The notes under the pieces were generated by a model. It was not told where the DNA came from. It did no database searches and saw only the letters and a program-made list of their open reading frames with translations. A stretch of 64,000 nt of DNA, taken from Alphaproteobacteria bacterium (lineage in GTDB: Bacteria; Pseudomonadota; Alphaproteobacteria; Rs-D84). The translations under genes were made by a program, and so were the position numbers. How positions within the stretch are numbered: the stretch's first letter is position 1; every line of letters starts with the position of its first letter. Positions 9,520 to 54,646 of the stretch are shown piece after piece. Where the stretch lies: NCBI GenBank assembly GCA_017535105.1, contig JAFXUI010000001.1, forward strand, positions 11,207 through 75,206, in the 5' to 3' direction.

Positions 9520-9550
9520 TGAATTTAAAAACCGGCAAATGCCGGCTTTT

Positions 9551-10297
9551 TTATTTCGTATGTTGTTTATACCAATCCAACGCATTTTTCAGATAATCGC
9601 GCGCCAAATCCAGATTCATTGACCCAGTCGCGTCGCGCAAGCGTCCCTCGGCATCTATCCATGTATCATAATCTGCCGGGACAACATTTGCGATCTTGCC
9701 CAACGTGTCGCTAACTTTTGTTGGTGATATTCCCCCCGCATATCCAAACTGAATATCCTTATACACTGGCGCAAGTCGCTTTTTTGGTGCGATGCCAGCA
9801 CCATATGATTCATCAAACAACAAAGTGAACTGGGCGCCAGTAATTTTCAATTCTTCTATTTGGGGTTTTGTAATACTGTTATACGCCAATATAACCTCAT
9901 ATTTTTTCCACTTTGATATCAGGTCAGCCAATTTTCGCGCGTTAAATTCGTGTGCATAATCGCCAATATTTAATTGGATTCTGGAAATCAACGGCTGATC
10001 AGTATAAGAATGTTTTTGTTTCAGAAAATGTTTTATTTCGCCCGGTATATTGCCAGTACAAATTTCATCACACCATTTATAATTCACGTGTAATGCAAAG
10101 TTTAGTGGTTCTTTTGACTCTTTGGCATATTCAATCACCTTGTTAAACCAAGTGTACATTTCTTTACCTTTGGACATAGTTGATGGGAACACTTGAATTC
10201 CTAATTCTGCTAATGGAAACGATTTTAACAAACCAACTACTTTTACCGGTTCCAGATTTTCACGCGGATCCGAACATGTTATATACCGAAGTCTCAT
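9551..10297 (-). CDS. Conserved hypothetical protein, paralog A of the MRLRYITCSDPRE family (248 aa)
   Basis: It shares N-terminal MRLRYITCSDPRE and multiple blocks (HVNxxWCxEIC, FxLLxDxSxGxGxxP, GYxGGxSPxxV, IWIDAEGxLx, LARxY) with the ORF at 11349..12101. The synonymous codons differ, so conservation is at the protein level. There is a weak resemblance to the phosphate-binding (beta-alpha)8 barrel motif xxGGxSPxNV of TrpF-like or CutC-like enzymes. Confidence 0.6.
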   Translation of the reverse strand: MRLRYITCSDPRENLEPVKVVGLLKSFPLAELGIQVFPSTMSKGKEMYTWFNKVIEYAKESKEPLNFALHVNYKWCDEICTGNIPGEIKHFLKQKHSYTDQPLISRIQLNIGDYAHEFNARKLADLISKWKKYEVILAYNSITKPQIEELKITGAQFTLLFDESYGAGIAPKKRLAPVYKDIQFGYAGGISPTKVSDTLGKIANVVPADYDTWIDAEGRLRDATGSMNLDLARDYLKNALDWYKQHTK

Positions 10298-10433
10298 ATA
10301 CTATCCTTTATAATGTGTGTAAATATATCTATACAATTTTTCGTATACAAGTCAAGGTATTCCCACGATTTTTTCATATTGTATTTTATGTTTTTTTGGG
10401 CTAATCTTTTGCGCATACAGAAAAGGAGAAAAA

Positions 10434-11081
10434 ATGAAGAAAGTATTACCATTGTTTATGGCCGGTGCGATACTGGCGGGTTGCACAACAACAAACCCAT
10501 ACACCGGCGAACAACAAACATCTAAATTGGTTTGGGGCACGGCGATTGGTACCGCGGCGGGCGCAGCAACCGGCGCAATTGTATCCAAGGATAAGGGCAA
10601 AGGCGCATTGATTGGTGCGGCGGCTGGTGCGGCACTGGGCGGTGGCGTTGGTTATTATATGGATACCCAAGAGGCCGAATTACGTAAAGAACTTGAATCA
10701 ACCGGTGTTCGCGTTGCACGTGACGGCGACAATATCCGTTTAATTATGCCGGGCAATATTACATTCCAAACAGATTCAGCAGATATCAATTCTGGATTCT
10801 ATGCAACATTGAATTCGGTTGCCAAAGTATTCAAGAAATACAGCGATACAACCGTTATGGTGTTGGGCTATACCGACAGCACTGGCAGCGTAGAATACAA
10901 CCAAACATTGTCGCAAAAACGCGCACAATCGGTTGCATCATACCTTATTGGCCAGGGTGTAAAATCATCACGATTTGAGGTTATGGGCATGGGCATATCA
11001 AATCCAATTGCATCAAACAGCACCGCGGCGGGTCGTCAGCAAAATCGCCGTGTTGAAATCAAAATTATTCCAAACAAATAA
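10434..11081 (+). CDS. OmpA-family lipoprotein with an N-terminal glycine-zipper domain (YiaD-like)
   Basis: It has a lipoprotein signal (ILAGC) and a Gly/Ala zipper (GTAIGTAAGAATGAIV...GAAAGAALGGGVGYY), followed by an OmpA C-terminal domain (VMVLGYTDSTGS...NRRVEIKI). Confidence 0.8.
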   Translation: MKKVLPLFMAGAILAGCTTTNPYTGEQQTSKLVWGTAIGTAAGAATGAIVSKDKGKGALIGAAAGAALGGGVGYYMDTQEAELRKELESTGVRVARDGDNIRLIMPGNITFQTDSADINSGFYATLNSVAKVFKKYSDTTVMVLGYTDSTGSVEYNQTLSQKRAQSVASYLIGQGVKSSRFEVMGMGISNPIASNSTAAGRQQNRRVEIKIIPNK

Positions 11082-11124
11082 TGATGATAAAGAACAAAAA
11101 AACACCGGCAAACGCCGGTGTTTT

Positions 11125-11370
11125 TTATCTCTGTTTTACAAAATCACGAAACATAATATTTTTTGTATTTGCTTTCGCATCAGCAAGCATATTGTTATTT
11201 TCTTTTTTCTCTATAATATCTGGTTCTGCTTTTGGTTTACGACGGTACAACAAACAACAACCCAACGCTATGGCCCCCAATGCCAACCCAGAGGCAATCA
11301 CTAATGTTCTTATAATTTCTTTGGAGTATTTATTCATTTTGTTTTCCTTTATCTTTGTCTGTTTATCCAT
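11125..11370 (-). CDS. Small hypothetical membrane protein (81 aa)
   Basis: It is a Lys-rich peptide with one predicted transmembrane helix (LVIASGLALGAIALGCCLLY). It may be spurious. Confidence 0.3.
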   Translation of the reverse strand: MDKQTKIKENKMNKYSKEIIRTLVIASGLALGAIALGCCLLYRRKPKAEPDIIEKKENNNMLADAKANTKNIMFRDFVKQR

Positions 11371-12101
11371 TTGTCTGCTTTCATAATATATTGACGTGCA
11401 AGTTCACAATCAAATTTGTCGTTGGTTTTCAATTTCCCTTCGGCATCAATCCAAATGTCTTCACGATTCTTTGGCACGACCGATGAAATCTTTCTTAAAT
11501 TTTTCACAACATTTTTCGGTGACATTCCGCCCGAATATCCCATCGGCACGCTGTCATATACTGGCTTGTTCCATGTGCCTGGTGTCAAACCACGTCCACC
11601 AGACGCATCATAAAGCAACGAAAACTTTGCGCCCATTTCATATAATACCCATGCGGCATTTTTTGTTCGGTCATTATACTGCAAAATAAATTCATGGTCG
11701 TCATTGTGCAGGAATAATTTTTTTACCGCATCATAATTTATATCACGAACGGCGGTGTTTGACATATTTAACTGCCAGCGTTTAACCAATGGTGAAAAGC
11801 CCAAGTTTTTACGATAAAGCCCAAAGAATTCCCGTAATTCCATTGGAATTTCACCGGTACGACAAATTTCTTCGCACCATTCTTGGTTTACGTGCACCGC
11901 CAAATTTATGTCATGGGCATCACGTACACAATAACGGCACAATTCATGAAACCATTCATTACGTGGCATACCCGGGGACGCCTTGGACGGATGCATTTGC
12001 ACCGCAATTTCTGCACGTGGCGAACTTTCTGCCAATTTTACAATATCATGAAAATCATTAAATTCACGCGGGTCAGAACAAGTGATGTATCTCAGTCGCA
12101 T
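11349..12101 (-). CDS. Conserved hypothetical protein, paralog B of the MRLRYITCSDPRE family (250 aa)
   Basis: The evidence is the same as for paralog A. Its start overlaps the 3' end of rlmN by 29 nt. Confidence 0.6.
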   Translation of the reverse strand: MRLRYITCSDPREFNDFHDIVKLAESSPRAEIAVQMHPSKASPGMPRNEWFHELCRYCVRDAHDINLAVHVNQEWCEEICRTGEIPMELREFFGLYRKNLGFSPLVKRWQLNMSNTAVRDINYDAVKKLFLHNDDHEFILQYNDRTKNAAWVLYEMGAKFSLLYDASGGRGLTPGTWNKPVYDSVPMGYSGGMSPKNVVKNLRKISSVVPKNREDIWIDAEGKLKTNDKFDCELARQYIMKADKWINRQR

Positions 12102-53434: not shown

Positions 53435-54484
53435 ATGTATAATTGGCTGATGAAATTCTTTTCCGCAGATATGGCAATTGACTTGGGTACAGCAAACACT
53501 TTGATTTATGTCAAGGGTCGCGGAATCGTATTAAACGAACCATCTGTTGTAGCGGTCCAGGAAAACAAACTTCAGGGCCGTAAAGAAATTTTGGCGGTCG
53601 GTGCCGAAGCAAAAAAGATGTTCGGCCGTACACCCGGCGCAATTACGGCGGTTCGCCCATTGCGCGACGGTGTTATCGCGGACTTTGAAGTCGCCGAAGA
53701 AATGATTAAATACTTTATTCGCAAGGTTCATCATCGCAGCCCACTTGCCGCACCACTTATCATTATTTGTGTACCGTCTTGCGCGACCCAGGTGGAACGT
53801 CGTGCTATACAAGAGGCCGCCGATGCCGCCGGTGCACGTAAAGTGTATGTTGTCGAAGAATCAACCGCCGCCGCAATTGGTGCGGGTCTGCCGGTTGAAA
53901 AACCATTGGGTTCAATGGTGTTGGACATTGGTGGTGGTACGACCGAAGTTGCAGTTATGTCATTGGGCGGAATCGTGTATTCCAAGGCTGTACGTACTGC
54001 GGGCGACCAAATGGATTTAGACATTATTGAATTTGTTAAAAATAACAAAAACCTGCTTATTGGTGAAAATACCGCCGAAGACATCAAAAAAAATATCGGC
54101 TGTGCAATTGCGCCAAAGGATAAAACCAACGAATTGTCGATGAAGATTAAGGGGCGTGACTTGTTGTCGGGGACACCACGTGAAACGGTTGTAACCGAAT
54201 CACAAATTGCATCTGCCCTTGCACAAACCGTTGGCAAGATTGTGAATACTGTACGCGAAGCATTGGCAAATACGCCCGCCGAATTGTCCGCAGATATCGC
54301 AGACCTTGGTATCGCTATGACGGGTGGCGGTTCAATGTTGCGAGGTTTGGATATCGCAATTCGCGCCGCGACGGGATTGCCGGTATTCTTGGTCGATAAT
54401 GCATTGGAATGCGTTGCACGCGGTTCGGGCAAGATGCTGTCCAGTTTGGATAAAAGCAAACACATCTTGCAGACCATGTACTAA
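53435..54484 (+). CDS. mreB: Rod shape-determining protein MreB
   Basis: [33 protein letters not shown] and the actin-fold motifs are conserved throughout. Confidence 0.95.
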
Positions 54485-54490
54485 TAAATA

Positions 54491-54518
54491 TTGCAATCTG
54501 AAATTTGTCTGTTATAAT
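54491..54518 (+). promoter_or_regulatory. Sigma-70-like promoter for tRNA-Val (TTGCAA-16-TATAAT)
   Basis: ttgcaa (54491-54496), a 16 nt spacer, then tataat (54513-54518), about 12 nt before the tRNA. Confidence 0.5.
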
Positions 54519-54530
54519 CAGGTTCGCTTT

Positions 54531-54607
54531 GGGTGGTTAGCTCAGTTGGCTAGAGCGTCACGTTGACATCGTGGAGGTCGTTGGTTCGAGCCCAATACCA
54601 CCCACCA
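54531..54607 (+). tRNA. tRNA-Val (anticodon GAC)
   Basis: The cloverleaf was read by hand: acceptor GGGTGGT/ACCACCC, anticodon loop TTGACAT, and an encoded CCA. Confidence 0.88.
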
Positions 54608-54615
54608 GATTTTAT

Positions 54616-54646
54616 AAAAAAACACCGGCATTTGCCGGCATTTTTT
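54616..54646. terminator. Palindromic bidirectional terminator (ACCGGCA family)
   Basis: aaaaaaacaccggcatttgccggcatttttt. Confidence 0.7.

Follow-up and report, generated by a model that had tools for sequence, protein, structure and literature searches.

A single hairpin, read as a two-way transcription terminator, recurs at convergent gene ends in the alphaproteobacterial lineage Rs-D84

Introduction

How does one and the same short hairpin come to stand at so many convergent gene ends of a single chromosome? The question is raised by a 64,000-nucleotide stretch of DNA, called the window from here on, from an uncultured alphaproteobacterium of the lineage Rs-D84 (contig JAFXUI010000001.1, positions 11,207 to 75,206). 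An initial annotation, made from the letters alone, had described seven near-identical palindromic hairpins in it, each framed by an A-run and a T-run, as terminators working in both directions. It had also suggested that they belong to a spreading element, similar to repetitive extragenic palindromes (REPs) or miniature inverted-repeat transposable elements (MITEs), or to a binding site reused genome-wide. Terminators dominated by a single sequence have so far been explained by DNA uptake signals, as in Neisseria and Pasteurellaceae, or by REPs and the REP-associated tyrosine transposases (RAYTs). Here the same pattern is found in a gut lineage with reduced genomes, and without the hallmarks of either system. 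Are these hairpins terminators? Are the copies related by descent or alike by convergence? Are they still moving? And what holds them so close to one sequence? The account that we favour, and regard as fairly probable, is an old amplification of one two-way terminator module, followed by vertical inheritance, selection for pairing on both strands and slow remodelling.

A hairpin between convergent stop codons

All seven hairpins are present where the initial annotation had placed them (Table 1), and every copy is bordered by an A-tract of 5-8 nt and a T-tract of 5-7 nt. The loop, first described as 3-4 nt long, is in fact 4 nt; when 8-nt arms are set 3 nt apart, the pattern has no match in the window. 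The stems are not all identical: the arms are a perfect CACCGGC/GCCGGTG at 11095 and 39921 only, and the other five copies carry one to four substitutions. Among these, the copy at 9527 keeps the complete core and has lost the outer CA/TG pair, the one at 25963 has an A>G change in the left arm, and the one at 54616 has its loop in the reversed orientation (ATTT). How surprising is such a set? The 20-mer ACACCGGCAAATGCCGGTGT, allowing up to three mismatches, gives 10 strand-hits at six window sites compared with 0.00 in 100 dinucleotide-preserving shuffles; the seventh copy (34986) is four mismatches away. The 10-mer AAACACCGGC occurs seven times in the window, each time inside a family hairpin.

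The placement of the copies is equally regular. By crude, mechanical gene calls the window has about 12-13 convergent junctions, of which seven hold a family copy (roughly half), three hold the hairpins that the initial annotation had listed as looser variants, and the remainder have weak hairpins or none. All seven copies do stand at convergent junctions, as had been claimed, although two of them (9527 and 54616) separate a tRNA-Val from a minus-strand gene and not one gene from another. No window copy lies within a gene or at a divergent junction. The copies occupy gaps of 25-60 nt at 3' ends, in which the hairpin with its A/T runs is often the whole intergenic region, and TAA stops frequently overlap the runs. 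All seven are stable when folded on either strand (-10.3 to -19.8 kcal/mol, z-scores -2.7 to -6.7). Among the strong bidirectional hairpins of the window, the family accounts for 6-7 of about 11.

Anatomy, position and two-strand folding agree with the proposed role, and from these three we infer that the copies are bidirectional Rho-independent terminators. The module would sit between convergent stop codons as an A-run, a GC-rich arm, a 4-nt A/T loop (AAAT/ATTT), the complementary arm and a T-run, so that RNA polymerase coming from either side would first transcribe a strong hairpin, next a U-run, and then release. In its A-run, GC hairpin and T-run, and in its stable fold on both strands, the module is like any ordinary bidirectional terminator at convergent genes. 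It departs from these in that ordinary terminators of one genome have unrelated stems and loops, whereas here a single stem-plus-loop makes up about 35-60% of them and is common to an order-level clade.

Table 1. Candidate bidirectional terminators of the window (positions from the first letter of the window; energies for the plus and minus strand).
Feature	Positions	Strand	Layout	Energy (+ / -), kcal/mol	Setting
Family copy 1	9527..9552	.	AAAAA CCGGC AAAT GCCGG C TTTTTT	-10.3 / -14.6	6 nt past the duplicated tRNA-Val 3' end; touches the stop of 9551-10297 (-)
Family copy 2, canonical	11095..11126	.	A7 CACCGGC AAAC GCCGGTG T6	-19.8 / -19.3	downstream of YiaD/OmpA-like lipoprotein gene 10434-11081 (+)
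Family copy 3	25963..25992	.	A5 CGCCGGC AGAT GCCGGTG T7	-18.9 / -15.9	between 24932-25948 (+) and 25994-27019 (-); T-tract overlapped by the minus-strand stop codon
Family copy 4	29387..29415	.	A5 CACCGGC AAAT GCCGGTA T6	-12.2 / -17.0	occupies the full 25 nt that separate the stops of 28654-29388 (+) and MacB-like permease gene 29414-30649 (-)
Family copy 5, degenerate	34986..35015	.	A7 CACTGGC AATC GCCGGTA T5	-10.5 / -10.3	sspB 34520-34987 (+) / gpsA 35014-35877 (-)
Family copy 6, canonical	39921..39951	.	A8 CACCGGC AAAA GCCGGTG T5	-18.9 / -19.0	parB 39028-39906 (+) / pal 39965-40384 (-)
Family copy 7	54616..54646	.	A7 CACCGGC ATTT GCCGGCA T6	-11.7 / -16.4	begins 8 nt past tRNA-Val(gac) 54531-54607 (+); converges with 54662-55156 (-)
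Probable remodelled family copy	41807..41836	.	AAA CCGGAC GAAAT GTCCGG T6		infC 41291-41803 (+) / der 41834-43252 (-)
Unrelated-stem terminator	21244..21272	.	A8 CGCCC GTTT GGGCG T7		infB (+) / VirD4-like gene (-)
Unrelated-stem terminator	50798..50830	.	TCCGCC ACTTC GGCGGA		50533-50805 (+) / accC 50834-52228 (-)

One family in a clade of gut bacteria

Is the hairpin a peculiarity of one genome? A scan for AAACACCGGCNNNNGCCGGYRTTT over one genome per species (GTDB) returned at least 120 loci. Among the matches listed, to which the counts of loci and genomes below refer, 82 come from gut metagenome-assembled genomes (MAGs) labelled Candidatus Enterousia, 'uncultured Rickettsiales' or 'Alphaproteobacteria bacterium'. 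One of these, L063 (62% GC), was set aside as a chance match with no A/T runs, so that 81 loci remain, spread over about 63 related species-level genomes. The remaining matches are single occurrences in unrelated bacteria, including Vibrio, Pseudomonas, Serratia and Shewanella. The related loci range from 31 to 55% GC. Synteny with the window is seen in many of them, and the nearest of those listed is the MAG RGIG8177, at about 81% nucleotide identity. Candidatus Enterousia belongs to the order Rs-D84, whose genomes are mostly smaller than 1 Mb (PMC12306168).

With the family defined by the core CCGG[CT]-N4-[GA]CCGG, the window and the clade loci together hold 155 hairpins. Their consensus is A5-8 CACCGGC AAAT GCCGGTG T5-8, with GC-rich arms of 7-9 bp (ACACCGGC) and a total length of about 28-32 nt. 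The four loop positions are conserved at 97/95/91/68%. Across 146 oriented clade copies, A makes up 86-95% at the positions of the one tract and T 82-91% at those of the other. AAAT/ATTT makes up 60% of the 155 loops and AAAC/GTTT another 13%. As to their placement, 81 family hairpins are convergent, 23 co-directional, two divergent and four inside open reading frames (ORFs). The initial annotation had proposed comparing the motif with other GC hairpins. The CCGGC core turns out to be the commonest stem, with about 36% of the clade's bidirectional-type hairpins other than the search hit itself, and the next stem (CGCCC) reaches 6.5%; CGCCC, TCCGCC and TGCCCC all occur in the same genomes as the family.

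Do the copies resemble each other because they descend from one ancestor? The decisive control is the loop, which was left free in the search pattern, so that the non-clade matches share the stem and the runs. None of the 39 listed non-clade stem-and-tract matches has an AAAT/ATTT loop, against 63 of the 92 from the clade (68%). Loops outside the clade are essentially random, which means that AAAT/ATTT is not needed for termination; its sharing among the clade copies comes from descent or from a clade-specific constraint. Judged by their loops, they are homologous and not convergent. The claim that the copies are more alike than termination needs is borne out by the same comparison, as the stem is found elsewhere with arbitrary loops.

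Could CACCGGC-AAAT-GCCGGTG simply be the best two-way terminator available to the lineage, towards which each junction has evolved independently? As a terminator, this stem has indeed appeared here and there in unrelated bacteria such as Vibrio, Pseudomonas, Serratia and Shewanella, and the compensatory changes described below show selection on structure. However, those independent cases carry the arbitrary loops just described, an 18-20-nt palindrome made from another GC hairpin would have to pass through unpaired intermediates, and other hairpins (CGCCC, TCCGCC, TGCCCC) coexist with the family instead of having given way to it. No other bacterial group that lacks uptake signals and REPs is known to have one dominant terminator sequence (in part after Kingsford 2007, PMC1852404). 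Independent origin is, on balance, very improbable.

Inheritance and slow remodelling

If the copies are homologous, are they passed on with their genes? At junctions where both flanking genes could be aligned, 70 of 99 interspecies comparisons match one family copy with another; in the others the partner is a different hairpin or none. Orthologous copies are 0.868 identical over the 18-mer, compared with 0.797 for random pairs, and orthologues have derived states in common, such as GCCGGTA in L007, L075 and L101. Loops flip between some orthologues, and the L016 orthologue of the copy at 39921 has the loop AAAC. In the closest pair of loci (L006 and L113, 92.5% identity) the hairpin is kept and the neighbouring spacer is scrambled.

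The looser variants offer a view of how copies are lost. Only one of them, at 41807, retains the CCGG frame; the stems at 21244 and 50798 are unrelated to it. All three, though, stand where relatives hold family copies. In L016 (about 81% identity) the junction orthologous to 41807 has a canonical copy, and in L038 a copy that departs from the canonical form by a single arm substitution; 41807 itself is probably a remodelled copy. The counterpart of 21244 is canonical in L097 and L115, and the L097 loop is also GTTT; by this comparison the 21244 hairpin was probably derived in place from a family copy. For 50798, the counterparts in related loci are a family copy at about 11 of 15 accC ends and at 4 of 5 ends of the other gene. 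Unrelated hairpins at orthologous junctions, which the initial annotation had named as a sign of convergence, do occur at some of them, but they look like decayed family copies.

How would one hairpin turn into another without losing its fold? At one orthologous site three loci (L100:6900-6935, L112:~2600-2640 and, in reverse complement, L049 ~7216) keep the outer frame AAAAAACACCG...CGGTGTTTTTT around three different palindromic apexes: GC-ATTT-GC, CCC-AATT-GGG and CTC-GGTT-GAG. With the frame kept and the apexes different, the hairpins change by substitutions that are mirrored on both arms. The window sites 21250 and 41813, compared with L097 and L016, likewise keep the outer frame and differ symmetrically on the two arms. 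Such mirrored changes suggest hairpin-templated mutation, in keeping with what is established about quasipalindrome template switching. Wherever a change can be polarised, it is a loss or a remodelling in place, from family to non-family, and not a gain.

The stems also vary in a compensated manner. The inner pair changes from C-G to T-A, and the outer pairs appear as CA/TG, TA/TA, AG/CT and AA/TT; about 70% of the pairs are Watson-Crick and the remainder are transitional intermediates. This is what would be expected of a structure under selection. A two-way terminator needs Watson-Crick pairs because G.U on one strand means an A.C mismatch on the opposite one. According to the favoured account, amplification in an ancestor of Ca. 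Enterousia / Rs-D84 would have brought one 'standard' terminator module to many gene ends, its copies would then have been passed on vertically with their genes, held near the ancestral sequence by the need for Watson-Crick pairs on both strands, and slowly lost through point substitutions and symmetric, hairpin-templated remodelling of the stem or the apex.

A separate observation concerns the scrambled spacer of the closest pair. It is about 200 nt long, lies between two terminators at a convergent junction (L006:3150-3360 and the reverse-complement equivalent in L113) and is unalignable. It carries short repeated words (GAGAGCAAAGCG... and CTTTGAACTCTGTACTTTGAAC), which are possibly another small repeat family of that sub-lineage.

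Is the hairpin a mobile element?

Dispersed, extragenic, near-identical palindromes that fill a large share of junctions, with patchy occupancy of orthologous junctions, do recall a REP- or MITE-like element that is currently mobile, whether copied by a RAYT/IS200-type Y1 transposase, by another enzyme or by ectopic gene conversion. Young copies would also explain the conservation of the loop more easily. The likeness to REPs, bacterial interspersed mosaic elements (BIMEs) and REP doublets forming hairpins (REPINs) of E. coli and Pseudomonas is real: these are also extragenic palindromes of 20-40 nt, which a genome holds in large numbers, preferentially at 3' ends and where genes converge, and which have effects on transcript 3' ends. 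But does the family carry the marks of such an element? The GTAG/GGAG head of REPs is absent, the flanks in the clade position table being plain A/T runs with no conserved tetranucleotide. There are no doublets or clusters of the REPIN/BIME type; all copies are single hairpins. Unlike REPs and REPINs, each copy is flanked by A/T runs, which makes it a complete intrinsic terminator, and one consensus serves about 63 species in place of species-specific families. In a limited test for RAYTs, E. coli RayT served as the single phmmer query against six-frame ORFs of the window and the 82 clade loci, about 680 kb in all, and had no match at E<=10.

Nor do the copies have the form of a MITE, which consists of terminal inverted repeats round an internal sequence, flanked by a target-site duplication, with a length of 50-500 bp. 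The element here is only about 30 nt long, and is hairpin and tracts alone. The initial annotation had advised looking for target-site duplications and flanking inverted repeats; neither is seen at the copies, where there is no inverted repeat past the hairpin itself and no conserved sequence outside the tracts. A mobile family would also be expected to form genome-specific subfamilies, and no loop dialects of this kind exist: loop identity within genomes is 0.435 compared with 0.451 expected (permutation p=0.67). Orthologues, as described, share derived states, the polarisable cases are losses, and the genomes are smaller than 1 Mb. Carriage by phages was also considered and dropped: among 2.9 million IMG/VR viral contigs there is one match, whose loop (TTGC) is unlike the clade copies and which is unrelated to them. 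The proposal of a spreading element is, accordingly, not sustained; the analysed loci give no evidence of current mobility, and we hold it to be distinctly unlikely.

Is the hairpin an uptake signal?

A second known route to a dominant terminator sequence is a DNA uptake signal, spread by biased uptake and recombination, whose inverted pairs are co-opted as terminators. Inverted uptake-signal pairs make up 55% of the terminators of Neisseria and 17-29% of those in Pasteurellaceae (PMC1852404). The parallel with the DNA uptake sequence (DUS) of Neisseria and the uptake signal sequence (USS) of Pasteurellaceae is close, as one short inverted-pair sequence with A/T runs provides a large share of terminators throughout a lineage. 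In the family too, inverted pairs make the terminator hairpins, about half of the terminators carry the motif, not far from the 55% of Neisseria, and the consensus is conserved clade-wide. The lineage, moreover, lacks nucleotide synthesis and may scavenge DNA (PMC12306168).

What would set an uptake signal apart is its half-sites. Known uptake signals are mostly single copies, many of them within genes. With the hairpins masked, 676 kb of sequence holds 22 copies of the half-site ACACCGGCA against 22.4 expected from its sub-words, eight of AAACACCGGC against 7.1, and 181 of CACCGGC against 176. All the 7- to 10-mers tested in this way lie between 0.85 and 1.13 of expectation. In contrast to Neisseria and Pasteurellaceae, the half-sites here are not enriched outside hairpins (observed/expected 1.0), the loop is conserved along with the arms, and the lineage shows no link with competence or an uptake receptor: among about 30 scanned ORFs, of the roughly 68 mapped in the window, no competence genes were seen. 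A signal in half-site form is largely refuted, and for uptake signals as a whole we see scarcely any chance.

Some frequent words do resemble the centre of the hairpin. The 8-10-mers GGCAATTG, CAATTGCC and ATGGCAATTG, among the commonest of that length, occur at 22 window sites (e.g. 2248-2270, 4897, 28158 and 49250), and all the sites listed are in coding ORFs. The over-represented words GCAATTGCC and ATGGCAATTG were considered as an element and rejected: all of them lie inside coding ORFs, where they spell Ala-Ile-Ala or Met-Ala-Ile codons. The abundance of GGCAATTG, CAATTGCC and ATGGCAATTG is a codon-usage effect.

What keeps the copies alike?

The anatomy, position and folding of the copies, their homology across the clade, their decay in place and the absence of uptake or REP-RAYT hallmarks are all observed; to these the favoured account adds an old amplification, and selection for two-way pairing as the keeper of their likeness, both of which we infer. 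Several points weigh against it. Retrieving loci by the motif, since the related loci were chosen for carrying it, biases upward both the shares given above and the orthologous conservation (71%). Gains of copies may have occurred as well. A further point concerns the loop: AAAT/ATTT remains at 60-68% even in genomes of 51-55% GC, for which selection on pairing does not account, and loops that would make the palindrome perfect (AATT/ATAT) are rare (6 of 155). Such loop conservation may point to a further constraint, or to copying that still goes on. The conservation of the loop across the GC range, and the original amplification, leave room for a recognition factor or for continuing homogenisation.

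Might the palindrome also be the recognition site of a clade-conserved factor, so that recognition too keeps sequence and loop constant? Such a factor might bind DNA as a dimer where genes converge, in the manner of a roadblock or of gyrase or a nucleoid protein, or it might bind the RNA hairpin; a role with gyrase or a nucleoid protein has been proposed for the REPs and BIMEs of E. coli. In keeping with this, the consensus is constant over about 63 genomes of 31-55% GC without dialects, the loop and the A/T positions flanking the central AA/TT are conserved past the needs of termination, and the 20-mer is a 9+2+9 dyad, the typical layout of a dimer site. Many copies, however, bear one to three arm substitutions, and about half of the convergent junctions have no motif. 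The orientation of the loop is also informative. At co-directional junctions 15 loops are A-rich and nine T-rich, with no clear bias; orientation is free of the direction of transcription, which argues against an orientation-specific RNA reader. We think a recognition factor unlikely, if less so than current mobility.

A broader idea is that the dyad ACACCGGCA-AA-TGCCGGTGT with its A/T runs is actively maintained in every Rs-D84 genome. This could happen through homogenisation without a transposase, for example if terminators copied one another by ectopic template switching or gene conversion and the commonest variant prevailed, or through a clade-specific reader of the dyad, be it a roadblock or topology protein or an uptake receptor needing both half-sites. 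If true, concerted evolution would tie together roughly 100 terminators in each sub-1-Mb genome, order-wide and over 31-55% GC. We put it forward tentatively, as rather unlikely.

The family is also of practical use. The consensus can serve as a marker of operon ends and for the binning or taxonomic assignment of Rs-D84 contigs, and it is a candidate compact part for bidirectional termination. About 100 paralogous hairpins over dozens of species form a natural series in which conservation, flipping and hairpin-templated remodelling can be followed, and in which the concerted evolution of terminators can be asked about.

Gene neighbourhood and minor observations

The DNA of the window is chromosomal and comes from a Gram-negative alphaproteobacterium; its housekeeping genes include dnaX, nusA, infB, lptD, pnp, mutS, metG, mnmG, parB, pal, gpsA, infC, der, accC, mreB and sspB. 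Rfam, at gathering thresholds, finds four tRNAs in it and nothing else. The last 22 nt of tRNA-Val(tac) (CGAGTCCCTTAACATCCACCAT, 9334-9355) recur 165 nt downstream at 9499-9520, and the stretch between the repeats has a terminator-like hairpin of its own (CCACG TTTAT CGTGG, 9363-9383). The arrangement resembles an att-type scar, such as an integrase would leave on inserting DNA between the tRNA and its original terminator. The copy at 9527 sits 6 nt past the second repeat, much as the copy at 54616 follows tRNA-Val(gac). A further tRNA, tRNA-Cys (33349-33422), lies within ORF 33276-34517 of the mechanical calls, which means that the gene itself must begin downstream of the tRNA.

Five minus-strand ORFs of 248-452 aa (1129-2349, 2327-3685, 9551-10297, 11349-12101 and 25994-27019) have no Pfam match, and NCBIfam, against which three of them were run as well, gives none either. 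Three of the five adjoin family hairpins.

Where does replication start? The cumulative GC skew has its minimum near 43-44 kb, though it also follows the gene strand here, and close to it are rsmG-like, parA and parB genes (37.5-39.9 kb) and mnmG (60244-61896). A replication origin may lie in or near the window (~37500-44000, 60244-61896). The orientation of the loops was compared with the direction of replication, and six A-rich loops lie to the left of the skew minimum and one T-rich loop to the right; this link was dropped because there are only seven points and loops flip between orthologues. Finally, a 751-aa type IV coupling protein of the VirD4/TraG kind is encoded amid the housekeeping genes (21269-23524, minus strand), and its orthologue is found in several of the related loci.

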